This document shows, one piece after another, positions 6,401 through 27,520 of a stretch of 28,178 nt of DNA. Numbering within the stretch: the stretch's first letter is position 1; the number at the start of each line of letters is the position of its first letter. A program made the position numbers and the translations under genes. The stretch is from Catajapyx aquilonaris (Eukaryota). The stretch lies in contig JYFJ02001120.1 of assembly GCA_000934665.2 (NCBI GenBank), forward strand, positions 62,001 to 90,178, given 5' to 3'. Under the pieces are notes generated by a model, which saw only the letters and a list, made by a program, of their open reading frames with translations, was not told the origin of the DNA and made no database searches.

Positions 6401-9400
6401 CAGTATAAGTAAAGCACATGAATATAAGTTGAGTCATAAAAGAAATGTTGGTACCGTCACTGTAAAGATACAGTGGAGCCAATGCAACAGCACTTCAAAC
6501 CACTTGAAACTGTGACTTGTAAGGTAATTGCTGTGGAATGTTATTTTGCATCCTGTTTGATATGTCACTGGACTCGTTGGGATTTGTAATTTTTGCAGAT
6601 TCTTGGCATTATTCATTTTGCACCGATTATTATACAATTAGTTGTCAATTTTGATATCAATGTAATTTAATGTAATTCCCTTTACAGGGTTCCACTTTGG
6701 GGTGGTGTACTGATCACCATCGTTGACACATTCACATTCATGTTCCTTGACAAGTATGGTCTGCGGAAATTGGAGGCCTTCTTTGGTTTCCTGATTATAG
6801 TGATGGCCGTCTCGTTTGGTTATGAATATGTGGTGGTAGCCCCAGACCAAGGGAGGGTGGTGGAGGGGATGTTCTTCCCCTATTGTGCTGGATGTGACTC
6901 GAGGGCCCTGCTTCAAGCCGTTGGGATTGTAGGAGCCATCATCATGCCCCACAACCTCTACCTTCATTCTGCTCTAGTCAAGGTACAAACATTGCGAATT
7001 AAGTGTTCAGTGAGACGAAATTCAGTGAAACCTGTCATGCAGTATACTTAGGATGAATTTGTTTATTTTATAGAACGTTTGTTTAGTTCTGTGCTGGATT
7101 TTTAGTATTGATGTGATAAGTAATGAAAATAACTTTAGTATGGAACATTTTAGCGAAGATCGGTAGAATGCTTTTCTATGGACATGATTAATATACTTTT
7201 ATGTTGGAGGGTGTGTGTTGATAAAGTGTTTTGCAGTAGTAAAACTCATTTGGGTTAGAAATGTATTTTATAGTACTGTGCAAGTGCAGCAAGTCTCCGA
7301 CTTACATAAGTGGATAATTCCACAACATTATACATAACTTGACACAACTTAGAATGTGTTTTTCATTATACAGTATACTGTATTGGACTTCGTCAATACT
7401 GGAGTCACTATCATACTCAATAGGAATAGAGGCTGTTACGAGCAGATATGGGCTCCCCATGAGGTCCTAAAACAGGTCGAAAATGTTGTCGCATGCAAAC
7501 AGAGAGCCAATGAATCTTGGCAAGCAGGTTTGAGTTGCCATGAAGCGAAATTTAGTGTCTTTTCTCATATAAATAGGTGACAGTTCATATTAACGCTGTT
7601 CTGTAGATTTTTTGTGCACGTCAGAATTTTTTATTTATTTACGTAAATCTGAGTCTATGTGTATATTAGAGCTATGTAAGCTGGCAACTGGCTGTAGTGG
7701 AATGTCATGTACCAAGAGGTAGACTAGTTGGTATATCCTTGGATTATCTAAGCAAGTAAAATACATTTTTTGCTGTGTGTCTAATGCTGATACTTTTACA
7801 GTCCCGAAATGTGGACCGTACCAAAAAAGAGGCTGTCAAGGAGGCAAATATGTACTACTTCATTGAAGCTACCATCGCTCTCTTCGTGTCATTCATTATC
7901 AACGTGTTTGTGACAGCTGTGTTTGCACATGGAATGTATGATAAGACCAACCATGAAGTCCGACAAATATGTGAAAATGCAAGCAGTATGTACACAAAAG
8001 TGTTTCCTGTAAGTTACACACTACTTAATTGATTAGCCCTTTCGATATCACCTGTCATTGTGCAGTGGGTCCTCTGTATTCACGGGGGTTTGGTTCCAGG
8101 ACTACCCACAAATACCAGAATCTGCAGATGTTGAAGTCCCTGATATAAAATGGCCTTGTATAATATGCGTATAATCTAGGTAGGAACATCCTTCCATATA
8201 GTCCTACTTTAAATCTCTCGAGATGTCTCAGAATTCCTAATAGGCCTACACTGTAAATGTTATAGTGTATTGTAGTTCTCAGTGCATGGAAAATGCAAGT
8301 TTTGGTTTTCGTAACTTCCTGGACTGTAATTTTTTCTGAATATTTTCGACCTGTGGTTTGTTGAAAATAGACAGATACAGAGACCCCACTGAACAAGAAT
8401 TCAAATAGGCAAGGCGCAAGGCCACAGATATGGCAACACCCTAATCAAAGCAAATGCCATGTTTGGGAAGTCTACTCTACAGTAACTTCCTGTAGTATAG
8501 GAATAATAATTTTAGGATGAAGTGATGTCATGTAATACAATAGAGAATTTTTCAATTGATGTTAACTGACAGGATGACAATCAATATGTTGACGCAAGCA
8601 TCTACAATGGAGGTGTGTTCCTGGGGTGTCAGTTTGGAATTGCTGCAATGTACATATGGGCTGTTGGAATATTGGCTGCTGGGCAGTCGTCAACCATGAC
8701 TGGAACTTACGCTGGACAATTTGTAATGGAGGTGAGTCACTGTAATAATAACATTTGCTGTTGGGATTTCTGATATATGCCAAAAGAATTATTATGCAGT
8801 TAATCTGCATAAATTGGGGAGATGTCTGTTAAATTGGTATTCCCCTGACTTTAAAATATTTTATGCATAACCCAATTTGGTGACTAGAAGCTTTTTTTGA
8901 TTGCATAACGTGCTTTTTTTCTTGATGACTGTATAACTAGCTGAACTGCCATTCTTTGTACAAAAAAAAAAATGGTTACCTTCTTGCTAAAGCAATTTCC
9001 TTCTTTTTAAAGTGTACAACACTACTTACCAATTGCTTTAATGCTTCAGGGCTTCCTGAATCTGCAGTGGACGAGATGGAAGAGAGTCCTCCTGACTAGG
9101 TCTATAGCAATGGTTCCTACATTCCTTGTGGCCAAGTTCCAGAATATAGAAGACCTTTCAGGCATGAATGATCTGCTGAATGCCCTCATGAGCATGCAGT
9201 TACCTTTCGCCGTATTGCCAACACTGACTTTTACCTGCGCTCACAATGTGATGGGAGATTTCAAGAATGGCATGTGAGTGTTATAAATTAAGTATATGAA
9301 TAATTTATGCAATGTAATTTAATATTTTTTTACCTGCACTCCTCAGGTTTCTCCTCTGTCTGGTGCAGTGAAATTATGCTCCAGATATTTTTCATAATAG

Positions 9401-11663
9401 ACAAGTTTCCAATGTATAGGACAATACTCAACTAGGAGAGAGCATCTACTATGCAGTAACATGCTTCCAAATTGGTGTCAATGAGCCTTAATTTAGTCAT
9501 GTAGTCAGTCATTTTGGTGTCCAGATAGTCGTAACACACATAGAGGATGGAAGTGGCAACGAAATGATTTCTGTCAGGTCGGATAGGCTTTGCGGGGCAT
9601 AACTTTGTGAATGTGACTATAGCTCTACTCGTGTTCCTTATGAAAGATCACTTCTTATCCCTTGCACATTGGCTCATCAGGGTATCAGTGTGAGACATAA
9701 AGTGGGACATGACCCTTTAGAACTGATCTAATCTCAGCCATGTGTAATCTAGTTGAGATACTGGTGAAAACATCCCTAATTCCATACATATCTAGCAAGT
9801 GGTTCCCAGAGTTAAGTTATGGCTGAAAGAAGGAGAAAGATGGTTGCAGCTTATCCCTAAAGGATTCTGAACATTATGAATATTGCACCTGTTGTGTCCT
9901 ACTCAACCTTTTTCTGCAACTGTAGCTCCCTTGTTCTGGCATGGCTCGACAGTCTGCAAAAATTTTCCAGCAGTATAGCAGCAGTTGGCTACTGGTCCCA
10001 ATCCTGACCGGTCTTTGGTGTGTAGGAGCCAGACTAGAAAGATCACCTTCGTTCCCTCCTCCTCCATCTTGCTCTCTTATTGCCTAATTGCATTGCATAA
10101 TTTATTGGAGTTGAATTGATATTACTTATCAACAGTGTTTAAGGCCCCTAGTCTGATGACCCCGGGTAAGCTATCCCGGGGGTAATCACCATGGCAGCAT
10201 ATGTAAAAGGATAGCAGTAAACAACCAGTTACCCCAGGGGGCAAGCTACCCCGGGTCACCAGACTATATACCTAAATGATGAAAATTGTCTTTTCAGAGT
10301 GACCAAAGTGATTGTTGGAGCCCTTTCAGTTGCTGTGATAGGCATAAATATTTACTTTGTGCTGCAATATGTGCAGACTGACTTGGCTGATTCTCATTGG
10401 GCAGTATATACAGCAATTGCATTATATGCTGTGTTTTACATGCTAATGTGCCTTTACCTGGCGTTACATGTCTTTGTGGCAATGGGGGCGACTTCGTTGC
10501 TACATAATAGGGTAAGTGTTTGATTTTTCCACCAACACTCATGTAAGATTTAAAAAAAAGTAATGGTATATGAATATGTAATTTCCACGTATCGTGAGTG
10601 CTGTTTAATCAGGATGTTAAGGGATGAAAAATGGGTCAACCGTGCATTTGGTGAAAAAAGCATGAAATTTGTTACAACTGTCCCTGAGACCATACTCGTC
10701 AAATTCAGATATGGCGCCAGGCCCATTTCTGCTCTGGAGGCCCATATAATTTATTGCGAGTTGGCTAGCTACCTTGAAGATAATGAAAAGTCTTTTTCTG
10801 AGCCAATTATGCTTCTCAGGCGGATATGTGTCAAACAATAGTCGTAGAGAAACATGTATTCTACAAAAAGTATAGGACCTTTTCCATGTACGGTCCGTAT
10901 TTTCGGAGCTACAGCGACTTGAAAAAGCCTTTTCACTTGCTGAAGGGTAGCCAACCCGCAATTACGGGCCTCCGGGGCGAAAACGGGTGTGGCGCCATAT
11001 CTGGATTTAAAGAGTAGGGTCTCAAGGACATTTGTATCCAATTTCATGCTTTTTTCACCAAGTGCAGGGGTAGCTCCGAAAATAGGACTCTACGTGGAAA
11101 AAGTACTCTATACTTTTTGTAGAATACATGTTTCTCTACAACCTTTGTTTGGCACATGTCCTCCTGAGAAGCATAGTTCGCTCATAAAAAGACTTTTCAC
11201 TTGCTTCGAGGTAGCTAACCCGCAATTACGGGCTGCCGGGGCCAAAATGGGCGTGGCGCCATATCTGGATTTGAAGAGTAGGGCCTCAGGGACATTTGTA
11301 CCAAATTTCATGCTTTTTTCATCAAATGCACAGTTTTGTCCCATAACGTCCTGACTAGTTGGAAAAGCAGGTGATTTGAGCCCTGTAGAAACTTACAGCT
11401 CCTAATTAATTATTCTTCAGTGGTTCCTGTGAACTTGCTTGTACTGCTCTATACACGTATAATTTGATGCAAATAGTACTGGTATTAAATTAGGTATTAA
11501 ATTAAAGACTTTTTACATATGGAAGTGCTGGGGTTCTGGGCTCAAGAAAGTTGTTTATGACAGGCATGATTTTGTTCCTTTTTCATTTCAGTTCTTGTCA
11601 CGCATCATAACTCCACTTGAAAGCAGTTTGGATGTTTTGAATGTCCAAGGAAGTAATGGGTGA
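498..11663 (+). CDS. Mvl: NRAMP/SLC11 family divalent metal (Fe2+/Mn2+) transporter, Malvolio/DMT1-like; 9 coding exons, ~580 aa
   Basis: Exons 498-519, 585-784, 4987-5336, 6688-6982, 7802-8008, 8573-8731, 9050-9273, 10298-10511, 11592-11663. All introns are GT-AG and phases are consistent (1743 nt). NRAMP signatures: [31 protein letters not shown] (TM1 DPGN), [13 protein letters not shown] (TM6 metal-binding Met/His), and [18 protein letters not shown] (consensus transport motif). The first and last exons are less certain than the core. Confidence 0.96.
1265..1981. mobile_element. Mariner-derived fold-back MITE with ~250-bp imperfect inverted arms
   Basis: TA at 1263-64 and 1982-83. Ends CAAGCCCAGTCGAAAAATAAGTTTC / GAAACTTATTTTCCGACTGGCCTCT. 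The arms match to about 1515 and 1722. The centre holds a decayed transposase N-terminus on the - strand ([12 protein letters not shown]...[13 protein letters not shown]). Confidence 0.85.
2563..3139. mobile_element. Tc1/mariner (CAGGGTG-end) fold-back element with ~160-bp inverted arms and an N-terminal transposase HTH remnant
   Basis: TA|CAGGGTGGGCGAAAAGTCC ... GGACTTTTCGCCCACCCTG|TA. Internal ORF 2954-2730 (-), [20 protein letters not shown]...[13 protein letters not shown], resembles DUF4817-type Tc3-like transposase N-termini. Confidence 0.88.
3415..3648. mobile_element. Small TIR element (MITE) with internal TTTGCACTCCA/TGGAGTGCAAA repeats
   Basis: Ends CAGGGGTCGA / TTGACCCCTG; flanking direct repeat GTACAT (3409-3414, 3649-3654); several internal palindromic copies of TGCACTC. 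Confidence 0.75.
3784..4230. mobile_element. Tc1/mariner-type MITE with ~155-bp inverted arms and a GC-rich multi-hairpin centre
   Basis: TA|CAGGGTGATTCTCTCGAATGGAAACCC ... GGGTTTCCATTCGAGAGAATCATCCTT|TA; arms 3784-3940 and 4075-4230. Confidence 0.88.
5537..5679. mobile_element. Short palindromic Tc1-like MITE
   Basis: TA|CAGTGCGGAAAACGAAACGACGATCTGACGTCAT ... ATGATGTCAGTTTGTCGTTTCGTTTTCCACACAG|TA; an inner inverted match continues (5583-5600 vs 5622-5641). Confidence 0.7.
5680..6174. repeat. Unclassified CpG-rich probable transposon remnant in NRAMP intron 3
   Basis: CpG-rich relative to the surrounding intron. 14-bp direct repeat AGGGCACCTAGTTC (5837-5850, 6056-6069). Ends in ...GTGAATACCCTG, a TIR-like end whose partner was not found. 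Confidence 0.35.
8063..8391. mobile_element. Tigger/pogo-type MITE resembling mammalian MER2/Tigger3
   Basis: TIRs CAGTGGGTCCTCTGTATTC / GATACAGAGACCCCACTG. Internal blocks TGGTTCCAGGAC, AAGTCCCTGATATAAAATGGC, TACTTTAAATC, CAAGTTTTG and AATATTTTCGA match my recollection of the MER2/Tigger3 consensus (not verified by search). Confidence 0.78.
10143..10272. mobile_element. PIF/Harbinger (Tourist-like) palindromic MITE
   Basis: TAA at 10140-42 and 10273-75; inverted arms TAGTCTGATGACCCCGGGTAAGCT... / ...AGCTACCCCGGGTCACCAGACTA. Confidence 0.65.
10606..11357. mobile_element. Academ-like non-autonomous fold-back element with ~300-bp arms and an extra internal copy of the terminal segment
   Basis: Termini TA(A/G)TCAGGA...TCCTGACTA; 3-bp TSD GTT (10603-05, 11358-60). 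Arms ~10606-10911 and ~11070-11357. The centre ~10925-11066 is a direct repeat of ~11190-11330. The superfamily call rests on TAG ends and the 3-bp TSD. Confidence 0.8.
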
Positions 11664-11840
11664 GGCTTTTTTCTTTTACTAGTATTCTACCAGTATTTAT
11701 GTTTTGTATTATTGTATGTAATTGTAATTCTTCGAAGTTGTGAGACATACCTCCTTCCTTGCCCCCTTGGTGTCAAGTCAAGAAAGACCTGTGAATGTTG
11801 TGAGAGAAACCCATGCCTTAAATTTTTCTTCCTCTAACAG

Positions 11841-11958
11841 TCAGTTAGGTTCCAATCTAATTTCTCACCCTGACAGGAAAGGCATCGATGCCAAAGAAAG
11901 CTTAAGGGAAATAGCAGCAAGGATATCGGGGCCTTTAGAAGCTGACCTGATATCATGA
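11841..11958 (+). CDS. Candidate alternative terminal exon of the NRAMP gene (QLGSNLISHPDRKGIDAKESLREIAARISGPLEADLIS*)
   Basis: A donor TGG|GTGAGG at 11659/11660 overlaps the exon-9 stop codon. There is a good acceptor AATTTTTCTTCCTCTAACAG| at 11840. The phase-2 join is in frame with ORF 11740-11958. Confidence 0.45.
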
Positions 11959-12227
11959 TAAAAGAAAAATCCGGTTACTATTTTTTGTATTTAGGTCCTT
12001 GAGCCCGTCCTCTGACTTCACTAGGAGTTTGCCCAACGTCGTTTCGGAGGGGAGTTTCTGACCAAGGCTGCTGACCGGAACAAAGCAATATTGTACAGAT
12101 TCTGGATGTAAGAACTTTTACTAAAAATAACTTCTCTATAATATAGGTTGTTACAAAATGACTGAGTTGGTACTATTTTGATGGTTGTAAGAGAAAATGC
12201 AGTTTTATATATGGACAAGTAAAGATC

Positions 12228-15200
12228 TTAAACCTGGTTGTAGAGTTGATTTAAAGTCCCCTGAAGTTCTATTGAGCACTGGGTGTCTCCACACTCTTGG
12301 ATGATGTCATCAGGGATAAGTGGCTGCATTATGGATATGAACTGGTTTAGGGGACACTTTTCAGTGCAGTTGTGAATGCTAACCAAGTGTGGTGGACCCC
12401 TAGTGTCATTGCGAAGGTGGATCTGAAATAAGATTTGAAATGTGAAAATTGAGAAGGACTCGTTTTCAGGTATGAGAACAGCCTTACCTCTACGTGATAC
12501 TGTCCCATTTCCTTGTGCAGCTCGGCCATGATTGTAAAAGAGAAACCAATGAGATAGTCGTGATACAGCCCTGTTGCTATCAGAAATGCAGCGAGGGTGT
12601 TGTCATGACCCATGTACAAATTCAGCTTTCGTGTCCCAAACTGTCCATCCCTTTTCAAACTAAACATTTTCACCATCTCTCCTATCATTGGCCCTGCTCT
12701 CAAGCGTTGCATCTCTTCAGTGTGGAAAGGTTGCAAGTAGTACTGCTTCATGAGACCCTCCATTGTTTCTGGGTACACTGAGTCAGACCATTTTGGCAGT
12801 TTTAAGTTGTGGAGCTCTCCAACATAGAGCGTATCATAGATTGCACCGTAATCCTCGACTTCTTTTATCTTCATACCAGTGTGGGTTTCCAGGTATTCCT
12901 TTATTTCAGCTGTTTTGTTCTCAAACTCAAGGATATCTGGGTGTGACTTGAGTTCTTCAAGCAGCTCTGTATAGCGGGGGCAGTAAGATTCCATAATGAG
13001 GAGCTAGATGGGAGAAAGACGCAGTTTGTAGCTGTGTTTAAATTTATGCTTGTGAAGGTAGTTGGTGCAGTCACATGTTATGCCATTGTACTAAAGGGTT
13101 AGGCTAGCAAGCAAGGATTTTCCATGTTACTCTTATGTGAAAGGATTACAGTGCCCAATGATGCTGCATTTCTTACACTGATTAAGAAATTATTTCCTCC
13201 AGGATGGCAAGTAGATCTGTTCATACCTTGTCTGATACCTTGGGAAGTGTGTGTACAGGCAAGGCAATCCAGTTGGTGCCTTCTCTCTTCCACTGCTGAC
13301 TTGCATCGACTGGATAATAGAGTCCGGACAACAAGTACTGTGTGCTGATCAGATTACGATCCACATCTGTGCTCCTGGCCCATATCTCACCATTGATATA
13401 TTCGTCACTCAGGAGTTCTGCATACCAACCCCGTAGGAATTGACCCAATTCAAATTGGTCTCTGATTCCTTGTTGGGTTAGCTGTCCAAAACCTTCTTTC
13501 CAATGTGACTTGTGAGCATCTGTTGGAAAGGTGTCATAGGGAGTTCTCTGGCCATGGCGTAAGAGCTGGAAGTAATTTTTACATTAACATTCATGACATC
13601 TTTATAACATTAAATTCATCAACTTGGGAGCATTCTGATCAATGTTCTTGTACCCATGGCAGGCATTCCATGTGCTTACTTGTTAGTAGTTAGAAATGTG
13701 ATTATGCAGGAAACTTGGGCGGAATTTTTGTTGTACTACTAGTTACTGCTAACTAAGCAGTAGCACTGCACTACACTGGTACTGCTAAGTTAGAAGTAAC
13801 TAGTAGTATGACGAAAATTCCTCCCTTTCTTAGTTCGTTAATTTAGTAGAATTTTGCAGCACGCTAGAAAGTGACATTTCATTATCTTAAGCTGATTATG
13901 TTGAATTATTTCTGTTGAATCACATGATGAGATAAGGAATATGTGTAGTACTTTACCAGAAACTATTTTAGAATATACTTTTAAGTATTTTAAAACAATA
14001 TTGTTGAAGATATTTTGTATTGGAATTCTCCAAAATTAGGTAGCAATTAATGAAAATACGAAGGTAATTTACCTGCAGAGTGGTTGATTTTGCCAGTTAT
14101 ACAGGGTGTATCAAAAGTCTACCATAAGCCATGTACCAATGGCATAAGGGGCACCAGAGCATCATTTTATGTAGAGGGGTCATCATGTCTAGGCAGCCAC
14201 ATCACGTAGATAATTGACCTCAACCAACTAGTATAAAATATCCTGGCAGGTATGTAAACCTTCAGCTGCCATCGCGTCACAGGTGAAGGTCGCAGCTATT
14301 TTCTGGGGGGCTACTGCCACACTGCTGTTGGGGTAGTCATTAAGGGCTCTTAGAATGCAGTTCCCACCAGATGCACTGCTATTTTACAATCACGCTTAAG
14401 CGCAATCGCTACTACGCAAATGATCAATTATCTACGTGATGGTGATTGGTACGTGATTGGTACATGGCTTATGGTAGAGTTTTGATACACCCTGTATGAC
14501 AGGAGTTTGACAAATTATCTACCTGATGTAAATCAAAGACTAAAACTGCATATTATCCTGTTGCTTCTCAGCTTAGTCTCATTGTAACTAAATGCATCTC
14601 CTCCACTTGTTTAGCAAGGAAGAGATCACAGCATAACGTCGCTGGCAATCCAATACCTCGTATCTACGAAGAACCCAACTTTCCAGGAGAAGGAAATAAC
14701 TATTTCTTAAAGTACTAGCACACAACAGAAAATCCCTAATTTTTCCCCCAGCCTTACAGCTCTTAAGAATTACATTTCCTTGACTAAGCAGATGAACAGA
14801 TGGGGCTTGTATTGACTACTGCAAAACCATGGAAAACTGGAAGTCGGCCAAAATGCGAGATATGAGGTATTGGATTGCCAGCGACGATAAGCAAATTTGA
14901 AGCACCATTGCTCCATTTTCCTGGACGTGCTGTAACCTGGCCTCTAACTCTCCTGCTTTTTCTTAACTGCTGGGTACAATTACATCACCGCTTATTATCA
15001 TGAATGAAATGTTACAGTGCTGCTCCACCTTTGCTTCATAATTAAGTAGATCACTTATGAAACTCCCCTTGCCATGTAACCTTATGGCAGATGTTCTACA
15101 TCCTCTGTAAGCATCAAGGTTGCCTCCATGCAGTAGCATTTTTCTGTGTAATTTTGCCTTTAGGTTATTCAACCGACCTAGTTCTGAACACTTAATTTGA

Positions 15201-15575
15201 GTTATCAAAGTGCTCCATTAATTACTTGTTAAATTATTATTTTTAATAATGAGAGAATATTGGCCCTTGACGTGAGGGGACAACTGTAAAGAACTGCACT
15301 TTTTTCATACATGTGATTATTATCAAGTAGGTCTACTTTAGATGATGCATGATGATGAATGATTAAATAATAATACAAACAATCCATGCAAACTGCAGTG
15401 TGTCAGTCTTGACCCTTGAGTGGTGTTGCTCTTCTTTGTTGGACAACTGCAGGTACACGCAGGTGAGCAACGCTGCTGCCAGTATGACTGCTACCACTGC
15501 AAGCACAAATGCGACCCAGACCTTGCGATGGCCACTCAATGATGTAATGCGACTCCAAAGCAAGTGGCAAGCCAT
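12228..15575 (-). CDS. Histidine acid phosphatase (His_Phos_2; prostatic/lysosomal/Acph-1-like), catalytically intact, ~414 aa, N-terminal signal anchor
   Basis: Exons 15575-15381, 13565-13227, 13003-12488, 12422-12228, all phase 0, GT-AG. Catalytic RHGQRTP (13559-13539), STDVDRN, YMGHDNTL (HD at 12607-12602), and C-terminal CTEKCPL...QECG. Hydrophobic segment VWVAFVLAVVAVILAAALLTCVYL near the N-terminus. Confidence 0.93.
13717..13825. repeat. Near-perfect 109-bp palindrome (MITE-like) in phosphatase intron 1
   Basis: GGGCGGAATTTTTGTTGTACTACTAGTTACTGCTAACTAAGCAGTAGCACTG vs reverse complement of CACTGGTACTGCTAAGTTAGAAGTAACTAGTAGTATGACGAAAATTCCTCCC; very short loop. Confidence 0.8.
14102..14494. 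mobile_element. Tc1/mariner-type MITE
   Basis: TA|CAGGGTGTATCAAAAGTCTACCATAAGCCATGTACCAAT ... ATTGGTACATGGCTTATGGTAGAGTTTTGATACACCCTG|TA, plus a subterminal inverted block CATCACGTAGATAATTGA. Confidence 0.85.
14636..14887. mobile_element. MITE with ~30-bp TIRs and TA flanks
   Basis: CGTCGCTGGCAATCCAATACCTCGTATCT ... AGATATGAGGTATTGGATTGCCAGCGACG; TA at 14634-35 and 14888-89. Confidence 0.75.
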
Positions 15576-16819
15576 ATTCTTGGAAAACAAAGATATTAAT
15601 ATATTCCATCATAATGTCATTGCAATAATTTACCTGGCAGTCAGCAGCAGATGCACCGGTGCCCAGTTGCTTGCAAGGCAGCTCCTACACGTCTGAGGGG
15701 CATGCTCGAAGAGGGAGAGCCAATAAGCTTCACAATAGGCTATAAAGCAGCCCTTTAGACTGGTTATTTCTGAGAGGTGTAGGGAGTGCATGGAATCTGT
15801 TGCTGTCTTGATACAAACAAAGGCATTCATCAAGAGTCTGTTTAATTGTTTTCTTGTAGGAAAGGATTTTTGTTGACATTTCCATCTGCTTCACTGGGAA
15901 TTATTGCTCCTGTATCATAACATAGGCCAACTTGTTCAGGAGGGGAATGACTCTGTGTGGAATAAATACAAACAGGGCCAATATTTTGCAAAGAAACAGT
16001 CATTATGCAATCGGGAGATTAATTCAGTGCAGTGTGGCGTTTTAGCATGCCATTGGATCAATTGAAAGAGTGATGAAGTTAGATTACTTTATTGGTTGGT
16101 TACGCCATGTCTATTCAGAGTATCACACCATGAAGTGGCAACACATGTCAAATCTGACAGCATGGATATATCCTGCTAATATAGCCAGTCTACTGGTATT
16201 TAACTCAGTAATGCTTGCTGCTAATACCCTGCAGGCTGGTACCTAGAAATGGTATGTTAAATGATTAAATAGAGACAAAATAGGTAGAGCATCTAATGAT
16301 AATGTTTTATTCTTGGTTTTAACTCTAATGTTGAATAATTCTTATTGAAGTCCTGAAAAATTACTGTAACATTTGCGTCACAACATAATTATAATACTAT
16401 TTGCCCCAGATTCACCACTGAAGTAATTCCTGCAGAAATATGCTGCATGCAATAATTTCATCCTTGAATAATCCTTTGGGGAATCCACAAAAAACCAATA
16501 AGGACAACTAGTGATAGGAATTTTGGTTGTTAATGATGCGATGATTTATTACTTCAAAACGTTTCTGGTGCTGATTTTTTTAAATCAACAAAAACAAGAA
16601 ACCTGCTGCTGCCTGCTGGTTCATATACCCAGCTGCACGTGTGAGGCTTTGATGGACAGAATTGGGTTCCAAAAGGGTGATTCTTTGCTAGTCAACGTTC
16701 CCTTGGCCTGCTTGATCTTCATGGGTCAAATAAAGGCCAGTAGGTGTCAGAAATGTCACCTGTTGGTCCATTGACATTTCTCACTCCTGTAATTTTTACT
16801 TCTTCTGGGCCTAAAAATA

Positions 16820-17050
16820 ATCTGCCGGATCGGATCGGATAATCGCCGAATCTGGTATTTTTAAGAAACGGCGTGTACTGTATCGTCATGACAGAGGTAT
16901 CGCAAATATCAAGGAACTACATAATGCATCAGGTTAGTATAGGTAGGCTAAAGTTCTTACCTGGAGATAAGCTTCCAACCGTATACGTCACAATCGATAT
17001 ACTGTATTAGTAACTGACAATGATTGCGACACATAACATACTGTGCAGCC
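16820..17050 (-). promoter_or_regulatory. Candidate promoter / non-coding first exon of the active phosphatase
   Basis: Local CpG-rich patch; strong - strand donor CTCCAG|GTAAGA at 16961/16960; near-DRE AATCGATA around 16992. A further UTR donor lies at 15634/15633 and an acceptor just before the ATG (15579). Confidence 0.35.
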
Positions 17051-17240
17051 ATGAAACGTTTTAAGTGCAGGAAGGCACTGATCATATAGAGCTCAGCATT
17101 ACACTGGTGTACAGTACAGTACATGCAGATGAAAATATGTAACTTACTCTTGATTTGACTTATTATATATAATAAGGAACAATAACGTGAGAATAGACAG
17201 ACAACCTACGGGCAGAAGATAAGTCCTTATTTCTAGAAAA

Positions 17241-17835
17241 CTGAAGCGTGGGTCTGGTCAGATAGGCATAAGAGTAGGGTGTTGGCTACAGAGATGCATT
17301 ATCTCCGGGTTGTTTGTGGGGTTACCAAGTTCGATAGGATTAGGAATTAGGAGATTTTGGAGAGGTGTAATGTTAAGGAGACTGTTAAAGATAAGGTGTG
17401 TAGGTCTACTCTAAGGTGGTTTGGCCATGTGGAGAGGATGAAGGAGGAGAAGATTGTGAAGAAGGTTTATTTGGGTGGAGTAGTTGGTAAGAGGGGCAAG
17501 GGGGGCAAGGGTAGGCCTAGGAAGACATGGTTGGACCAGGTGGGTCAGTGTCTTAAGGGTGTTGCTAGTGTTAAGCCGAGACGTTCATGTGTCAATAGGA
17601 CCATGGACGTGGCTGAGGCTAGGGTTGTTTGTTTGGATAGGTGTAAATGGCGTAGGTTAATTAATGGGTAAGTAGGTAAATATGTCTGAGGATAAGGTGA
17701 TGTCTGAGGTGGGCAGGGGTGGGGGTGGGGTGGGACAGGTTGTTTTTAGGTTTATTCTCATGAGTTTTATTAGTTCATATGTTGGGTTAGCTTGCGTCTC
17801 CCTTCATCGCTGACTACCCCTCCTAGGGAAATGGC
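17241..17835 (+). mobile_element. 5'-truncated RTE-clade LINE (C-terminus of ORF plus 3' UTR), inactivated
   Basis: Frame EAWVWSDRHKSRVLATEMHYLRVVCGVTKFDRIRN*EILERC...LRWFGHVERM...GRPRKTWLD...DRCKWR (ends 17671), with a premature TAG at 17348-50. The 3' end CTACCCCTCCTAGGGAAATGGC resembles insect RTE termini. Confidence 0.85.
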
Positions 17836-18210
17836 TATATTTCAAAGTTAGAATTTGCTAACAATTTGACAAAATAAATGTTTTATTTTCTCCAAGTCCA
17901 TACATTGTAACGTAAGTGATAATTTTATATCTCGCTCATAGCGATGACAATCACATTATTACGGTAATTCCGAGTGCATTTTACACTGTAAATATCATAT
18001 AGATTTTCAGACCTCGTCCTGCACATACTCAATCATTACACTGTAGTCACAACTCTTTAGCTGACCGAAGCACTGGGAAGGGGAAAGAAAAATATAGAAA
18101 GACAAATGCATCAGCCCCACATTTTATTTTGTGTGAAGATTATGCAGTGTACTAAATTAAAATTTATCATGCAGAGTTACGTATGTGATAAGTGATAACT
18201 TCCAGTAGCC

Positions 18211-20226
18211 CTATTTTAAATATCCATATTTGGGAGTCCAGTGTTCAACTTCGTCCCGCTTACAGCAGCTTCTCTTTCCGACACACTTTGTGCAACGGTT
18301 TCGTACCATTTCGTAACCAAAGGCTACCAGGCACAATATCCATCCGGCCACAATAAGCCCAAACGGACCATACAAATGTTTCTTGGACAGTGGATGGTGT
18401 CCTTCCTCCTCGCTCTCTGCTGATTCTTCCTCCTCCTCGTCATTATTCTCTGGACGATGTTTGTTGCGCTCTCTTTGGAGAGCTCTGAGCAAGTTGGAGT
18501 AAGCGATCATGTTTGCATAGTGATAAAACGATCCACTTTCAAAAAAATAGGCCGCAAACCTGTAAGTTGCAGCGTAAGACGGATAATCATTTCTGTATGC
18601 TGCTCCTGTGTACACGTTCACCGCCACCTCGCTGTTGTGATAATATTTGATATGTCCATTTCTATCGGCCATATTCCACAACTCTGAGGATAAAAACGAA
18701 GCAACTCCGAGACACGCAGACTTGTGCTCAGAGCATCTCATGAAACAGTCTCGGTATGTTGAATGCAAAACTAGATTTTCTTTAATAGCCTGGTGAATCG
18801 GAAGGTCCAAGTCTCGAATAAATACGGAATACACGAGGCCATTAATTTGCTCTGCTCCCACCTCGTACTCCATAGACAACAGTTCCTCAAATGTCTTCGG
18901 AAGTACTTCCTTCTTGGGAACCGCCACGAAAGAGAAGACAGCCTCCTGGTATCCGCAGGTGATGACCATGGCAAAGTACAGCCAGAAGGCCACGAAGACT
19001 CTGAATGAGTTGGACGACGGCACCTCTCGGTTGGGCAGCTGCTCCAGAAAGGACTGAAGCAAGTACTGGGCCACGAACATGAGTTGACTAAGGGACGATT
19101 CTTTGTTGCCAGACGCTTGATGCTTCAGGATAAACCATCCTGCAAATACTCCAATGACAGTTCCAAACGTGATGCACAACCAGATAGCCGCATCGTATGG
19201 CCAGAATATAGTTTCCCACGACCAGACAGGACCAGGATACGCCCTGACGAAAGCGAATCCAGTGTAGAAGAAAGGAAAGCCAAACTTCACATGAGTCATG
19301 GCGTCATCTTGGATGAAAGAGAGTGGCAAATAATGGGCGCGTTTGTTAACTAACTCTCCGATGTGTCCTTTCCAAGATCCATTACTCATTCGACTCTGAT
19401 ATATTTCTTCCGGACTGATATCTTTACTGTACACTGTCCATCTGTACTTTAACTGGCGGCCTATAATGTACAGGGCCAGTTCTATCATTGGTAATTTCCA
19501 CATCCCTATCTTCTGGGCCTTAGCCTCCACTTCCTCGGAGGTAATGTCATAAAACCCTGGGATGTTAATATGTGTATCGTTGAATGGCATTGTCGCGTCC
19601 GGAAACAATTCTGCGACAGGAGTCATCGGTATGCCATGGGGATATCTTCCCAGAAATACTATGCGTGAGTCTCCTGGTTTGCAGTAAAAGAGTGAGGTGT
19701 AGATATCCAACGACGACTGGTTTTTAGGAGACGATTCCACAGCCACTTTGAATGACCATCCATCGGCGATGTCTAGCTGCATCGCCTTTTTGGACGATTC
19801 CCGTCTGATCCAGATGACAAAGTAGTCGTGAGATGTGTCGACAGTGATGCTGAATGCTTCGAATACACTCAAACGTCTGAATCCTCGCACCGTGTCACTG
19901 GTGACGAAATGTACGACGCACTGACCGGCCTTCTTGCGTCTTTCGTAAAAGTCCCAGAGCTCATGGACTGCTCGGTGATGCGGTACTTCGAAGCTGTTCG
20001 GAACTCGAAACGTCAAGGAGAATCTGAATTTCTGAGCCATTCTGTTCATTATGTTCTGGAACTGAGCCGGAAGGTGATCAAAGTCGTGAGCCAACACTAA
20101 ACTGCACTTGGGAAACGTTTGTGACATCATGTCCCAGAGGAACTGCGCCACTGTTTGTTCTTCGTGGTTGTGACACAGGCCCAGGCACAAGAGCAGGTTT
20201 AGCACGAATATCCTTGAAGCCATCAT
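18211..20226 (-). CDS. Intronless divergent ionotropic receptor (IR, variant iGluR chemoreceptor), 671 aa
   Basis: Single 2016-nt ORF with a signal peptide, S1 lobe NGSWKGHIGELVNK...FGFPFFYTG, M1 WETIFWPYDAAIWLCI, pore segment LQSFLEQ, M3 SSNSFRVFVAFWLYFAMVITCGYQEAVFSF, S2 start PKTFEELL, and M4 PLSKKHLYGPFGLIVAGWILCLVAFGYE. AATAAA on the - strand at 18128-18123. Confidence 0.9.
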   Translation of the reverse strand: MMASRIFVLNLLLCLGLCHNHEEQTVAQFLWDMMSQTFPKCSLVLAHDFDHLPAQFQNIMNRMAQKFRFSLTFRVPNSFEVPHHRAVHELWDFYERRKKAGQCVVHFVTSDTVRGFRRLSVFEAFSITVDTSHDYFVIWIRRESSKKAMQLDIADGWSFKVAVESSPKNQSSLDIYTSLFYCKPGDSRIVFLGRYPHGIPMTPVAELFPDATMPFNDTHINIPGFYDITSEEVEAKAQKIGMWKLPMIELALYIIGRQLKYRWTVYSKDISPEEIYQSRMSNGSWKGHIGELVNKRAHYLPLSFIQDDAMTHVKFGFPFFYTGFAFVRAYPGPVWSWETIFWPYDAAIWLCITFGTVIGVFAGWFILKHQASGNKESSLSQLMFVAQYLLQSFLEQLPNREVPSSNSFRVFVAFWLYFAMVITCGYQEAVFSFVAVPKKEVLPKTFEELLSMEYEVGAEQINGLVYSVFIRDLDLPIHQAIKENLVLHSTYRDCFMRCSEHKSACLGVASFLSSELWNMADRNGHIKYYHNSEVAVNVYTGAAYRNDYPSYAATYRFAAYFFESGSFYHYANMIAYSNLLRALQRERNKHRPENNDEEEEESAESEEEGHHPLSKKHLYGPFGLIVAGWILCLVAFGYEMVRNRCTKCVGKRSCCKRDEVEHWTPKYGYLK

Positions 20227-22233
20227 GATTTCTTCGTCTGAACTTCTCCGTGTAGGTAGTTACACTATAGGTACAAGTTGGGTATGTCGAGAGGCCAGTA
20301 CGAGGCGTTTCGATTGCTCTATTCCTGACACAAGGGTATGATTACATCTCATGTTGCAAATGACGCACTTATGGCTGAGTGATCAATACACTAGGCACAT
20401 GTGTAATTGCACCTTATGTATGCACACATATCGAAAAATGATAGGTTTCGCTCTATACTGTAGAGCAATACCTTGTGTGATTACATCTCATGTTGAAATG
20501 GTCCCGTGTCGAAACCTTTACATTGTATGTGAGCACGTTATATAATTGGATGTTCAGTTCTCTATTGGGAATTAAGATTTGAAGTAAAGAAACAATATAT
20601 TGCTCGTTTGTACAGTGGCAGATGTGAAATGCAGAACTAACATATAGTCGCATTAAAATTATTTTGTGATGTTGAAACCATCAATAGGTATACTGGTAGG
20701 CCTATAGCCTACGGCACCGAGCACTGTTGTTAATATGCATAACTTAATTTCAATCACACTTCGCGTCTTTTTTGAAAGAAGCCTGAATAAATATGTGGCC
20801 CCCTCAAGGTTGTGTCAACCGCAGGGGACTATACAGTATCATATTTTTTTTGGAGTAGACCAATAATCACTTTAGGAAAGTGTGAGAGTTCTCTTATTAT
20901 ATTCGGAGAACTCACACATTTTCCTATCGGATCGATGTTTAGAAATACGTAGACTGCTCCGACCCTGTTCATTAGAGCAAAACGTATTATAATACTTTCG
21001 TCCAACGTAGGTTTTAGCCTGATATCATGGCTATTGGTTTCTTGAGAAGGTGAATCAATGGCTTGTACTGAGGAGGTAACATTATTTTGAAGGCCTGTAA
21101 TATACAGAAAGATCAAACTGACTGATTTCACTATATTACTGGTTTGAACTTTGGAGATTGATTAATCTCTTATTGATGTCTTATTGGATGAATTATTTTC
21201 TAATATTAATTTCTCAAGGAGGCTGTAATTTCCGTGCCCTATTGAAGAGAATGAGCAGTCTAGTGTAGACCATATATATTCTTTCCTTTAACTGGTCGCG
21301 GTCATTTTTCTATAACTGATTAGACAGAGGACTATTATAGACCCTTTCAGATCCGGATTAAATGCAATTTCCAGCAAAGTGGGGTGCATTTCAAGACTTC
21401 ATTTGACGACTGCACTTCTTGATTGAGCAACTTCTCCAGGAACGATCTAAGCAAGTAGTACGTACTGTAGTAGCCGCAAACACCAGAGAGTGCATGACAC
21501 GTCTCGATCACGCTAACCGGGCTCTAATCTTTAGGAAATCTCAGACTGGGAAGTGATGACCTCCAACCATAGCCAAGTTTAAAGTTTGAGATTCAGCCAG
21601 GCAGCAAATTCCCCAAATTATGGAGGTATGTGGTACAGTATCTAATACAAGTAATTACGTATATTAGACCTGAAGGAACCTCACGAAGGCGAAGTGCAAT
21701 GTAGGAAGCCCGGTTGTTGCACTGTACAGTACTCATAATATTAGCAGACGAATATTTTGAATAATTTTCCAATACCTTGAACACCAAGGGAATAAAAATC
21801 ATAAGGCAGAGCGTATATTAGTCAAAACTTTATATATAAAAAGATGCGGTACCTCACACTCAATTAATCTCATTATCCGATACGGTATGATTTTGGAGAC
21901 AGATCGGAACTAATGAGTCTACTCTCCGATGCTTGTCCTTCAGGCGACGTTATTGGAGAGACAGACTAACTGAGCTGGCAGTAGTATTCGGGGCATTCAC
22001 TTGACAGCATTGAACCTCTCCATTTGACAAGATATCCAACAAGCTTGTTATAATATTACATTCTCGGCAAGTCCTTATTAATAGGCGGCGGTCACATTTC
22101 TTTGGTATGCTGACTAAGTCCTCCACACAGTTCATGCCTTGGTTCATGCTCATTACAATCTCGTTGCACATTTGGCACTGTTCAATACTATTCACAACGC
22201 GATCGTTTCTTCTTCATTTAATCATGATTAAGC

Positions 22234-25200
22234 CTAACTCTCTGATGGCCGGATGTATCTCCTGTGATTCCTGTGCCTAACCACCACCATGACAATAAGC
22301 ACTATCAAAAGCATGACGCAGATGACACTCAGAACAGCGATGACCACATCTGTAACATTGCAAGGAAACGGATTAGTCACCTCGCCCACACCCTATATAC
22401 TAATAAGATATGCATCAAATTAGGCAATCGCAAGGACCTTTTACAGCGACTCCGGATCCTTCCAAACCGCATTCCCAGGCCCAGTCTTCTGTCTTGAAGG
22501 GTTGCATCGCCTCGCAGAATAGCTCGGTGGTGCATGGCAGAGGACAACGTGCCATCCACATAGGGTATGGATCCCGAGACGTGTCGTTGTGATACGTGAG
22601 CTGAAAACATTGGATGTGGTTGTAAAAAAATGAAGGCGCAAATAGCGTGAAAGTAAAATAAAAAAGCTTTGTTTGTAACCCTATATGAAGGCCAAGTAAC
22701 TTGCAAGGGAATCCCCCCCATCAGAATGAGATGTTGTGCTCTTGGCAAGGTGAAGGGCGTCCAGTTTCAGATTGCCTCGATATTACTGATATTCACTGTT
22801 GTAGTGCATACCGTATGACCATCGGCATTCACGTTATCTAGAAACTTTTACGTGCTGCGATTTGTAATAAACTTAGTAATTTGAATTCGCTTGAAGTGTA
22901 ATTAATTTCAGTATCCAATATACTACTTTACATAATATTTGCAAGGTTACTACGGTATGTATACAGTGTCCAGAATTTTTCATAACTTATAGAAAAGTCT
23001 CGTCATTGGTTAATATCTTTAAATCATAGGCCTCTGATCCTGTGTTGTAAAGGTCATATTTACGCAATGCAAATTTGAGGTGTAATCATGAAGCTGTCTT
23101 GTCCAGCTGAAAGGCACATTTTGACAACTCATTGCAGTAGCCTATAGTACAGAGTGAGTGCCATGATGATTACAATAATATTCGACCTGTTGCAACCGGC
23201 CCTAAGTCACACCAGTAGTACGTAAGGCAAGAATTGCACTTATATAAAACATGCAAGTTGGGAAGGTGGCCAGTGAATTTTCTTCATAACCTCGGCGTGT
23301 GCGTTTTATTGGAAGCAAAAAAATGTGATAGCGTGAAGTTTTACACGGTAACGTTGCTGATTGAGTAATTCTTGACGTAAATTCATTAATTGCAGTTCTC
23401 GGGCAAGAGAAGCGCGAGAAAAAGTATAATCTCACGATATGGGCGGAATGGTGTTTTCGTTTTTTATGTTGTATTTTATGAGACGCAAATCATATAAAGT
23501 ACGCCTACAATATGTTTAAATTACTTCCTCTTTTTTTGCAAATATATAATTAACATACCTTGACAGCGTAATCTCCGTCTATTCCGTGCGTTTCGAGGAT
23601 GACCGTGGCCGCATATGGTGGAGGAACAGAGAGATCAGCTCCCAAGGTCTGCAGCAGCCCTCCGATTATATTGCTGCTAACTCCATAAACAAACACTTTC
23701 TTGTTGCTGGTCCCATTGTGAAGTTGCTCGAAATGGTTCCCGATGTCTTCCAATATTGGGCCTGCGAATGTATTAATTTATATATATTAAATTAAGCGTC
23801 ATAAGATTTGCTGTGAATATTTGCGAGATCTAATAATAGTACTGGACTGTAATTTAAAAAAGAAACACTGACCTAGTGTGAGCTTCCTCACTTCTGCTGT
23901 GAGCCCATACATTTTGTAGCTTTGAGCCACAATTGGCATCATTTGTTGGGGAAACACATTTCTAGTCCAGTCTGGTAGGATCAAACCGCTGTTGAGCTGT
24001 TGGCAAAAGAAATGCATTGTTAGATTTTCCTAGCTCAGTGTATTACACCGCAATTATTTCACAATCAATACCTCGTCTGTTAGAGTGTTGTAAATTTCCG
24101 CAACGTCCATGAATGTCTTGACTGGCCGTCCTGTGTTTTCCTCTATAAACGCATAAAGTGACCGTCTTTCCTCGTTGTAGGCCTTTAGATGTGGGAGGTC
24201 CAATATAGTATCTATTGCGCTCTTCATTTTTGGGCACATTGTATCAGAAGCCAGCTGCAAAGAAAAATCATAAATTTATTGTGGAGAAACGACAAAAAAA
24301 TGTAAATATAGACTTTGAGGGTGTAAAGTGCAATAATACTGCATGTTGTTCTGTAGCTGAAAACCTGTTTACCTATGCCAAGTTCTCACTATGGAAAGAC
24401 GTCATTAGAGAAACTATCACACATAATTAGCAAAACGCAAGGCTGTAAACAGCATCCTATACATACCCAGTCACAACTGGCGTCGTTCGTGCGGACCGGT
24501 ACAGGTTGCCAGAGAACTCCGGAGTTCCAGACCTGAGATCCTTCAGGAGAAAACATCCCAGCCAATGCAGTTTGCAAAGTGATTATGGTTTTGTCCACGT
24601 TTGAACTTCGGGCCTCTACTTCACTAGGATGGAAGTAATATCCTAGAAATGGCCTGTAATGATTGGCCAGTTGCTTTCCCACCAAATAAGCCCTCATTTT
24701 GCCAACCTGGAAAAATAGCGTGGAATAATATTAGCATGTGCTTCAAAACCCATATGTGAGATGTACTTACATTTGTGACGTGACCAAGACCATTGGGCCA
24801 GCTTGAGGCACCGTTGTATGGGTCTTTAGGGTACGGTGTCTCAGGAGTCTGGTCAGTGTCGCTGAAGAACTGCAAAGAGTGACAACGTTGCTCACTCTAC
24901 TGTGTCAATGAATTGGGGGGCTTAAATTATGCGCGCCCTAATTTGAGGATGACCTCATGTCATATGATTGGAATGCCATCCATTGCATATGGAAATTTGC
25001 GGATGACAGTAATGGCCTGGTAATGGCCTGCGAGAAGGTCTTTTGCAACACTTTGGTCGTGGTAAAATGTTACGTTAGAGATTGCAGCCTTCTTTTGAAA
25101 AATGTACCTAATCCGTACCTAATTGTCGCTTATTGACACGTATGACTGTTAAAAGTGCTGATAAGATGATTACAATTAAGCAATTTGGTTATGAGCATAT

Positions 25201-25683
25201 TATTTATGGCGGGTATGAACTGGCAATACTCGTGCATAGATTTTCTAAATATAAATCCTTTCCTCTCCCAAATACTTGTAATTAGGTGGATAAGTAAGAG
25301 TTTGAGGTTGAATGTAATCAATTTTTACTTCACGAATGTAAATTACTGCACACTTCCCACTTATGCACTTATGTGAGTTTTTAAAATCGCTTGAAAATTT
25401 TATGACAATTTTACTGATGATAATGCAGTACCTTAATTCAAAGATGACATAGGAAACAATTTTATAAAAAATTGATCATAATTTTGTGCAATTAAGAAAT
25501 CTGCATTAAAAATTAATCCGCTATGTAAAAAATTTAAAAAATAAAATTGTCAAATGAAATAGCACTTACCACATGAAGTTGTTTGAGCTGCCTCAGATCT
25601 CGAGAGGCTGGTTGACCATGGCCTCGTTGAGCGCGGACATTTGAAATGCACATAATAAGAACAAGTCCCCAGAAGCAACGCAT
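22234..25683 (-). CDS. Histidine acid phosphatase-family protein lacking catalytic residues (probable pseudophosphatase), signal peptide plus C-terminal TM, ~413 aa
   Basis: Exons 25683-25570, 24869-24771, 24706-24467, 24254-24072, 23996-23873, 23761-23559, 22600-22438, 22349-22234; the frame is open throughout. Family motifs are present (YPKDPY..WPNGLGHVT, WQPVPV, CPK, LPDWT, PPPYAATVILE, HNDT..CPLPC..W..EC). RHGxRxP reads SDTDQTP and the HD region reads YGVSSN. The last donor (AAG|GTCCTT) is weak. Confidence 0.88.
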
Positions 25684-27520
25684 GCTTATAGATTTATGGC
25701 ACGACCTCCGTGTACGTGAGAGACTGTCAGTAGAGGAACCTGCTTTGGACTACCTTTCCTGTCGGTGTCTGTGGAAAGACTGCCAACTGATTCCAACCAC
25801 GGAGTAGGGGGGCTCTTAAGGATTGAGGTTACGTCACCGAGGGCTACCATGGAAAACCACTCCCAGAGTCATTACCACTGTACGGTATAGCTGCGGTCAG
25901 ATGAGGATTGGAGCAACTTTGAAAATTTCCATGCACAATAGATTGCACCTGATGTCATGATGGGGGTAAAAAATAAATTAATTGTGATTTTTTAAGGAGG
26001 GGAAAAACCGTGGTGACCTTTCATCGTGTGGTTAAAATCTAATTTTCCGTGGGATAGTACTACAATGCCACTCAGAATACCAGATGAGGATTGGTGAAAA
26101 TGTGAGGGAATCACGCAACTCGAGATGTATTGCGTTTTTGGCACTTTTTCACGTGAGAATATTTTATATTTTGATTCAACCACCGTCACACTTGATTTTA
26201 TCATCGAAACATGAAAAGGAAAATTTAAGTTATTTAAGTTTGGGAAGCTATTTTGAAACGTGGCAAAAGTATATGGATGATGTTTTGATTTAAATGGCAA
26301 GACTACTTCATTTACACAAAAACTAGAAAATCATTCGGATGTTTTTAAAGTTATTAAGGAACTTTTTGCGCTGTGAGATATTTTACAGGGTGTACTGACA
26401 GTTTGTGGAACAGATTTAGTTGTATAGATGAAGTAGACTATTCCTTGCTCTGTAATGGTTATAGGAGTCTCTGCAATCAAAATCTCATTAACCGTAAGTT
26501 TTCATAGATTTATTCTACATAAAATAGAATCTGCGTTGCTGTAATTGACATCTCAAGGACTTGCCCGAGGGAGAAAAATATTGCAAGTGCCTGACGTTAT
26601 CATTCAGACAATATCTATCAGATGCATATTTTTGTTACACAACAGGAAATTTAACATTGCGCCTGGAGCACCATTTAAAACAGGACAGACAACTACAAAG
26701 AACTGTAGCTACAGTACAATCTTTACTAACAAATTAACTCGTCCTATACTGAATAACATTATAGCTTTTTACTGTGTCTTGATTAAATATCCTCGGCATA
26801 ATGAAAAATCAGATAAATAGAGATAATTACAGCATTACAAAACACCGAACATGAGTTATCGAAATGTATAAATTTGGCACTCCTGAGTGTCTGAACTTCC
26901 TCCGAATATTACCAAGGACAAGGCTCGTAATCACTCTGGACAAGGCCGCATACAAATTTACTATTTTTTGAAAGCAATTACTTACCTGCCCTCAAGACAG
27001 TGCCCTTTTTTTGTACCGAGTTCCCCATGAATTTCTCGTGTTTCAGTCAGGTAATTACAGTTACCATTTTACCGAGAGTAATAGAAATTGTTTATTAAAA
27101 ATGGCTTACCCAGCACTAATTAGCCTAGAACTCTCCTAAACCTGTTGTGCAGGAAAACGGAACTTGTGAACTTGTGAAAAAGGCCATAATTATGGGCATC
27201 CGGAGATGCTGCAAGGTCCTTTCCTCGTGAGTCAATCGTTTGTCCGCCACTCATTACGAAATCAAAGTATGGACTCAGGCGGAAGCGCCTACGCCTTCCT
27301 GAAATGAGACAATCGTGTCTAGGAAAAAGAATGCGTAGGGGCTCCTTCACCTGCGTGAGTCAGCTCGGTGAATCAAAATCGGAAATACCTCTGTAATATG
27401 CCTAGTGCGTTTTGCGAAGTGGTAAAGCAAATTATTAAATAAACATGGACTTAAACTCTTAAAGTATAGCCGAAACAAATATCACAAAATGCTGTTTACA
27501 GCCAAGCAACCGGAAGGGTT

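Follow-up and report, generated by a model that had tools for sequence, protein, structure and literature searches.

Is a gene that has kept the frame of a histidine acid phosphatase, and none of the catalytic residues, a decaying copy or a protein maintained for something other than catalysis? This question is raised by a 28,178-nt stretch of the Catajapyx aquilonaris genome (assembly GCA_000934665.2, contig JYFJ02001120.1, positions 62,001 to 90,178 of the forward strand), referred to below as the window, with all coordinates counted from its first letter. An 8-exon acid-phosphatase-like gene lies there on the minus strand at 25683-22234. Our analysis indicated that it is likely the gene of an expressed pseudoenzyme, a type I membrane glycoprotein kept by selection on its fold, and not a decaying copy. 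Judged by its residues, the product fails every catalytic feature of the family enzymes and ought not to be annotated as one of them.

The coding sequence (CDS) of the gene is 1242 nt long; its 413 codons are uninterrupted up to the terminal stop. All seven introns are of the GT..AG type with pyrimidine-rich acceptors. These features bear out the eight exons and the uninterrupted frame of ~413 residues that an initial annotation had read from the letters of the window. Exon 1 (CDS part 25683-25570, 38 codons, start codon at 25683-25681) encodes a signal-peptide-like N-terminus and has its GT donor after 25570, and the 5' untranslated region (UTR) probably extends to ~25772, judging from the depth table of the transcript contigs described below. 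Exon 2 (24869-24771, 33 codons) carries S-D-T-D-Q-T-P (24863-24843) at the place of R-H-G-x-R-x-P, and exon 3 (24706-24467, 80 codons) carries SSNVDKT, with the K codon (24592-24590) at the place of Arg79 of human prostatic acid phosphatase (PAP). Exon 4 (24254-24072, 61 codons) contains the conserved Cys158, which corresponds to PAP Cys129, and exon 5 (23996-23873, 124 nt) ends in phase 1. Exon 6 (23761-23559, 203 nt) contains YGVSSN (23687-23670), in which S282 and S283 (23678-23673) stand at the place of His257/Asp258. Exon 7 (22600-22438, 163 nt) encodes an NDT sequon and the conserved Cys340, Cys344 and Cys365, while exon 8 (22349-21990, CDS part 22349-22234) encodes the membrane helix and the tail, followed by the stop codon (22236-22234) and a 3' UTR reaching to at least 21990.

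The family membership proposed by the initial annotation was upheld by the profile searches. Exon 3 alone passed the cut-off of Pfam PF00328, branch 2 of the histidine phosphatase superfamily (26.8 vs 23.6 bits), and the spliced protein scored 310.7 bits over residues 22-405 against a purpose-built profile of 70 RHG-bearing homologues. Moreover, 28 of 30 Atlas feature matches carry PF00328. The PDB matches of exon 3 at E <= 0.001 were only four human and rat PAP sequences, 1cvi_A, 8xj4_B, 1nd5_A and 1rpa_A, with a best E of 3.3e-14 and a weakest of 1.5e-13.

The active site was then mapped on human PAP numbering. In the alignment of exon 3 to 1cvi_A (E = 3.3e-14), K110 falls on Arg79. The alignment of exon 2 sets FSDTDQTP, from the string FFSDTDQTP, against F10-R11-H12-G13-D14-R15-S16-P17 of the same chain and thus places S-D-T-D-Q on R11-H12-G13-D14-R15; it is weak (E = 0.28), with 1cvi_A at the top of the list. 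The alignment of exon 6 to residues 232-295, in which S282-S283 falls on H257-D258, is also weak (E = 0.074), and again the same chain comes first. Aligned by MAFFT with fish lysosomal acid phosphatases (LAPs), one crinoid homologue and two homologues without names, the protein showed the identical mapping and was colinear from end to end, including the helix and the tail. The replacements are therefore R11S, H12D, G13T, R15Q, R79K, H257S and D258S. The three motif sites reported earlier, SDTDQTP at 24863-24843, K at about 24590 and YGVSSN at 23687-23670, were all recovered. The last of these had been described as the HD proton-donor region, which was correct in position; more precisely, S282 and S283 replace H257 and D258, and N is the next residue.

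The homologue pool used for comparison consisted of 183 proteins (33 from one search and the 150 best exon 3 matches), of which 84 had 300-480 residues. The R, H, G and R columns of RHGxRxP are 100% conserved in the 70 homologues of the profile, and the H and D columns of the HD motif are conserved at 0.97 and 0.86, respectively. The Arg79 place is occupied by R in 84/84 homologues of 300-480 residues. Among the 150 best library matches, 149 have R there and the remaining one, a fragment, has Q, while K was found in none (0/150).

The functional weight of these residues is known from PAP. Mutation of R11 or H12 abolishes the activity of PAP, and mutation of R15, R79, H257 or D258 severely impairs it (PMC3676848). 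With the nucleophile H12, the proton donor D258 and H257 all replaced, the phosphohistidine intermediate could not be expected to form in the Catajapyx protein. Phosphate esters would probably not be held either, with S, Q and K in place of R11, R15 and R79 and D in place of the nucleophile, and for this reason a role as a substrate trap is unlikely.

Could the protein still be an enzyme, with its catalysis moved to other residues or with a new reaction on a non-phosphate substrate? Polar residues (D42, K110, S282, S283, and H68 at the G-Q-L-T place) would line the former site, and Vip1/Asp1, which have RHA and HI and were called pseudophosphatases from their motifs, retain activity (PMC13216928). 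However, the protein is not a single motif variant, as its nucleophile, its proton donor and all three arginines are replaced, and loss of any one such residue leaves PAP dead or badly impaired. Furthermore, flea proteins with fewer losses are inactive on p-nitrophenyl phosphate (pNPP) (PMC10728186). We consider continued catalysis improbable.

Outside the active site, the protein has the type I layout of LAP/ACP2, namely a signal-like N-terminus, a luminal domain, one C-terminal helix and a short tail. A short hydrophobic core that ends in V-R-A marks the N-terminus as a putative signal peptide, judged by eye. The single strong hydrophobic stretch covers residues 377-399 (hydropathy above 3 around residues 376-382), and it is followed by a basic tail of 14 residues, RHRNHRR and then Y407-I-R-P, in which the tyrosine stands 8 residues past the helix. 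The four family-conserved cysteines are all kept (C158, C340, C344 and C365), and two N-x-S/T sequons are present at N269 and N326. The signal peptide, structural cysteines and C-terminal transmembrane helix of the initial annotation are in agreement with this layout, the signal peptide being again a judgement by eye.

The distribution of the replacements was compared with that in an active-looking paralogue of the same window (12228-13565, minus strand). This count was made on the 70 rows that have RHG and are 340 or more residues long, in which 56 columns were at least 80% conserved. The pseudoenzyme keeps 38 of these 56 columns and the active neighbour 41. In the seven catalytic-motif columns (R11, H12, G13, R15, R79, H257 and D258) the pseudoenzyme keeps 0/7 and the neighbour 7/7, while in the 49 other conserved columns they keep 38/49 and 34/49, respectively. 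The contrast between 0/7 and 38/49 in the pseudoenzyme is significant by Fisher exact test (p = 1.4e-4), and the 11 other columns that differ do so mostly conservatively (Q>H, L>V twice, Y>F, M>I, S>T, I>V). These results indicated that the loss is focused on the active site, as had been claimed from the sequence. In the set of 84 homologues, 74 have an aligned RHG; among the other 10, five are gapped there, four, which are fish isoforms whose N-termini differ, show other residues, and one, P0135, has R-N-G. The set of replacements found in the pseudoenzyme is shared by none of them (0/84).

Two members of the pool deserve a separate mention. P0135 (unnamed, Logan; 377 residues, no membrane helix) has R-N-G for RHG and H-H for HD and keeps R15 and R79, and its sequence raises the possibility that catalysis was partly lost, independently, in another part of the family. 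In the fragment P0156, Q takes the place of both R15 and R79.

Neutral decay was simulated on the CDS of the pseudoenzyme, with uniform substitutions, no indels and 300 runs per level. Stop-free frames were left in 24/300 runs at 10% residue change, in 3/300 at 22%, and in 0/300 at both 50% and 70%. In addition, a quick maximum-likelihood tree of 50 rows, including 48 homologues, was built; P0004-P0024 and P0026 were left out as near-duplicate fish LAPs. Both window genes fall near the base without a resolved position in this quick tree, the pseudoenzyme on a long branch and in no starred set. Its end branch (1.7) is the third longest in the tree, compared with 1.47 for the active neighbour and a median of 0.82. 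As these two end branches are similar, the pseudoenzyme does not greatly outpace an enzyme encoded by the same genome.

It is against these data that a transcribed relic has to be weighed, that is, a gene whose function is lost and which is drifting with its frame and splice sites not yet hit. The loss of all catalytic residues and the long end branch agree with such a relic, as does the fact that the searched collections hold no orthologue which could show constraint and that the transcript comes from a single run. A relic that had gathered the many base changes of the seven motif columns should not, however, have left the other conserved columns so little altered, nor should the four cysteines, both sequons, 14 splice signals and 413 codons all be intact, when so few simulated frames survive a residue change of 22%. 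The similarity of the end branch to that of the active neighbour also speaks against drift. We therefore regard the relic as very improbable.

The search for relatives gave matches to the family and no orthologue. A word-index search with exon 3 against longer proteins returned 14 candidates, none at E <= 0.001, and an exhaustive phmmer search with the same exon against 1.84 billion representatives returned 1042 matches at E <= 0.001, with a top identity of 49% over ~70 residues. Of the 10 nearest clusters, six are named and scattered (Xenopus PAP, wasp venom acid phosphatases, beetles, a flatworm) and four are unnamed; these names do not point to any orthologous group. The active neighbour stands just as far from its relatives, with a best identity of 37% in the alignment used for the tree and of 52% when only its most conserved exon is taken. 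For this reason, the blank result probably reflects an unsampled lineage and not an orphan gene.

Transcription was examined by placing the contigs of the public run X1 on 11800-26300. The kind of this run is on record as "?" (guessed), and the only ground for treating it as RNA-derived is that its contigs leave out introns at GT-AG boundaries. X1 carries 27% of the sampled words of 22234-25683, a stretch of which the exons make up 36%. The contigs skip exactly the predicted introns, and the skipped parts end in CT..AC when read on the plus strand, so that the coding strand has GT..AG there. Joints were seen at 22349>22438, 22600>23559, 23996>24072, 24254>24467 and 24869>25570, and a further joint at 23760>23872 (cut +1) corresponds to 23761/23873. 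One contig of 1267 nt links the 3' UTR (from 21990) with exons 8 to 3 and differs from the window at no letter. The contig that joins exons 1 and 2 covers 24820-24869 and would thus include the codons of S-D-T-D-Q-T-P, according to the depth table. The junctions of the initial annotation were accordingly supported at six of seven introns, matched exactly and with no base differences in the listed pieces. Together with the profile scores, these joints show that the frame did not arise by chance. The joint of intron 2 (64 nt, 24707-24770) is not among the X1 joints listed, and the uncovered parts, including the 3' part of exon 2, are uninformative either way.

When all six frames of 22234-25900 were scanned, the coding strand had no RHG, R[HN]GxR or HGxRxP, and the opposite strand gave a single chance RNGSR. 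With exon 1 directly joined to exon 2 in the X1 contigs, the alternative RHG exon that could have overturned the earlier reading was not found. An artefact of the gene model, with RHG in another exon of the true transcript or with exons taken from different transcripts, could shelter only behind the unseen intron 2 junction and part of exon 2 in the listed contigs, and it is scarcely credible beside the blank scan, the contig joining 25570 to 24869, the 1267-nt contig linking exons 3-8 with the 3' UTR, and the position of K110 and S282/S283 within the exons of that contig whatever exon 2 may be. The transcript, the focused loss, the simulation and the blank scan support the initial proposal of selection and not decay.

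Several points weigh against a maintained pseudoenzyme. The searched collections gave no orthologue from which a ratio of nonsynonymous to synonymous substitution rates (dN/dS) or the conservation of the replaced residues could be read. The alignment behind the profile test and the column counts had the pseudoenzyme as a row, while the profile itself did not, and the description of the pocket rests on alignment only. On the transcript side, X1 is the one run that carries it, and contigs give neither level nor strand; about 56 nt of the mRNA around the exon 2/3 junction appear uncovered, by arithmetic on the depth table, and the frame would be cut if the 64-nt intron 2 were retained. At the protein level, the place of H112 is taken by R. 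Furthermore, the tail tyrosine stands in Y-I-R-P, which departs in its last residue from the sorting signal of tyrosine, two residues and a bulky hydrophobic residue, P not being one (motif as defined in PMC2121048). Taking these points into account, we still hold selection on the fold to be likely.

The pseudoenzyme was compared with the known members of the family. It resembles LAP/ACP2 in fold family and layout, with signal peptide, luminal domain, helix and a short tail containing a tyrosine. Fish LAPs align with it from end to end at 24-27% identity, and the conserved cysteines are common to both; the membrane segment is encoded by the last exon in the pseudoenzyme as in human LAP (PMC3676848). 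In contrast to LAP, its catalytic residues are all replaced, its tail has Y-I-R-P where the aligned fish LAPs have Y-R-H-V, and it does not fall within the LAP clade in the tree. The closest solved structure is that of PAP/ACP3, which has a transmembrane splice form. The equivalents of Cys129/340 and Cys315/319 are kept in the pseudoenzyme, and so is W106, as seen in the alignment to 1cvi_A. PAP is an active dimeric enzyme in which H112 and W106 affect dimerisation (PMC3676848), whereas the pseudoenzyme has the seven catalytic-motif changes and H112R.

The nearest functional precedent is found in fleas. The salivary proteins XcAP-1, -2 and -3 have the histidine acid phosphatase fold without H12 and H257. 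They show no activity on pNPP and serve as binders of biogenic amines and leukotrienes; in XcAP-1, H257 is replaced by Ser, as in the pseudoenzyme (PMC10728186). The same type of loss, that of both catalytic histidines with the fold retained, was found here (H12D and H257S, with the profile match of 310.7 bits). The two cases differ in that the XcAPs are secreted without a membrane anchor and have lost one or two catalytic residues, with Arg78 and a sulfate near the old site being named (PMC10728186), whereas the pseudoenzyme has a membrane helix and is also without the whole arginine cluster. Since no flea chain (0) was among the four PDB matches of exon 3, the loss is probably independent of that in fleas. 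Among the blood-feeding vectors compared in the flea paper, such losses are reported only in fleas (PMC10728186). Toxoplasma GRA44 was considered as a further dead acid phosphatase and dropped, as it has a metal-dependent type of site and belongs to another family (PMC7031617). Acid phosphatases are unmentioned in the main text of a Drosophila enzyme survey (PMC12869072). The literature search, with most subscription journals outside it, yielded only the flea paper and no report of a membrane-anchored dead histidine acid phosphatase.

The active-looking paralogue lies 9 kb from the pseudoenzyme gene, and the two have family, strand and splicing in X1 in common. Its partial model consists of exons 13565-13227, 13003-12488 and 12422-12228 on the minus strand, its first exon not having been located, and it scores 47.9 bits against PF00328 and 334.1 bits against the profile of 70 homologues. 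It has R-H-G-Q-R-T-P, S-T-D-V-D-R and G-H-D, with R15 and R79 present, and X1 contigs show its joints 12422>12488 and 13003>13227. The protein ends without a membrane helix and is apparently soluble. Both genes have a phase-0 intron right before the two hydrophobic residues preceding the RHG position, and the paralogue has fewer introns, its exons corresponding to exons 2+3 and 4+5+6 of the pseudoenzyme gene fused. Identity between the two proteins is only 25%, and the tree does not join them as sisters; the paralogue has all seven catalytic columns (7/7) and no helix.

What might a membrane-held acid-phosphatase fold do when it does not catalyse? The initial annotation had offered ligand binding, scaffolding and the regulation of active paralogues as candidate roles. 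The flea acid-phosphatase-like proteins act as binders, and other membrane-anchored dead hydrolase domains behave in a similar way. By analogy with these, the leading reading, which we propose tentatively, is that the pseudoenzyme is a binding module held at the membrane on the luminal or extracellular side, whose remodelled cleft or surface would bind a non-phosphate ligand or a protein. A second possibility, which we regard as rather unlikely, is that it pairs through the dimer interface with an active member of the family, for example the soluble paralogue at a distance of 9 kb. In PAP, full activity depends on dimerisation, and single monomers are active only at a very low level (PMC3676848).

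A more specific form of this pairing would divide the job of a lysosomal acid phosphatase over two genes, a soluble catalytic neighbour and a dead, membrane-anchored subunit. Vertebrate LAP has the catalytic domain together with the routing anchor and tail in one polypeptide. In the divided form, the two subunits would pair via the dimer interface, and the dead one would tether its live partner, direct its routing or activate it allosterically. We find this doubtful, and keep it in view because PAP needs dimerisation, W106 is kept, both genes are spliced in X1 and the neighbour has no anchor.

The rest of the window contains other genes and repeats. A multi-exon gene of a metal transporter of the NRAMP/Malvolio type lies at 4987-10523 on the plus strand, with exon open reading frames (ORFs) at 4987-5340 and 6671-7051 (PF01566, 109.6 bits) and likely further exons at 7760-8032 and 10221-10523. 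Proteins of insects, molluscs and crustaceans match the first of these at 84-93% identity, and this exon is too conserved for a taxonomic placement. Downstream of the transporter gene, at 10554-11392, similar peptide strings are repeated in ORFs of both strands, as would be expected if copies of a dispersed repeat had diverged; no array was reported by Tandem Repeats Finder in this part, and none in 10300-14600. Upstream of the RHG exon of the active paralogue are two foldback elements resembling miniature inverted-repeat transposable elements (MITEs), at 13717-13825 and 14093-14503. One is a near-palindrome with arms of 52 nt and a loop of 5 nt, at an X1 depth of 91-196, and the other is a unit of ~411 bp bounded by 48-nt inverted repeats that are 94% complementary. 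At 17124-18091 there is a repeated element with high and mixed X1 contig depth, many variant letters and small indels, and 17001-18000 shows a strong local GC skew of 0.367. The ORF at 17351-17671, for which the Pfam search found nothing, presumably resembles the C-terminal end of the proteins of non-LTR (long terminal repeat) retrotransposons. Finally, an intronless stop-to-stop frame of 682 codons at 18211-20259 on the minus strand resembles a variant ionotropic (glutamate-type) receptor. It scores just under the Lig_chan cut-off (29.4 vs 30.8 bits), its nearest Atlas clusters are arthropod families like the ionotropic receptors (IRs), and no X1 contig covers it. These clusters, which are a lead only, and the matches of the NRAMP exon point to a protostome, probably an arthropod, as the source.

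Dead members of enzyme families are common. For the histidine acid phosphatases, a dead homologue with a new role is already known from fleas (PMC10728186). The present gene departs from that case in three ways, as its product is anchored in the membrane, all of the arginine cluster has been lost and the loss probably arose independently. The gene offers a clean case, in which the complete catalytic set including the arginine clamp is swapped while the fold, disulfides, glycosylation sites and lysosomal-type anchor are kept, with an intact soluble paralogue next door whose transcripts come from the same sample. Unless the two proteins do pair, what is gained is incremental. The locus also gives a warning for annotation, in that calls of "lysosomal acid phosphatase-like" in arthropod-like genomes can be non-enzymes. 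And it provides a tidy system for the use of a membrane-held acid-phosphatase fold without catalysis, whether as a receptor, a cargo binder or a partner of a live enzyme.

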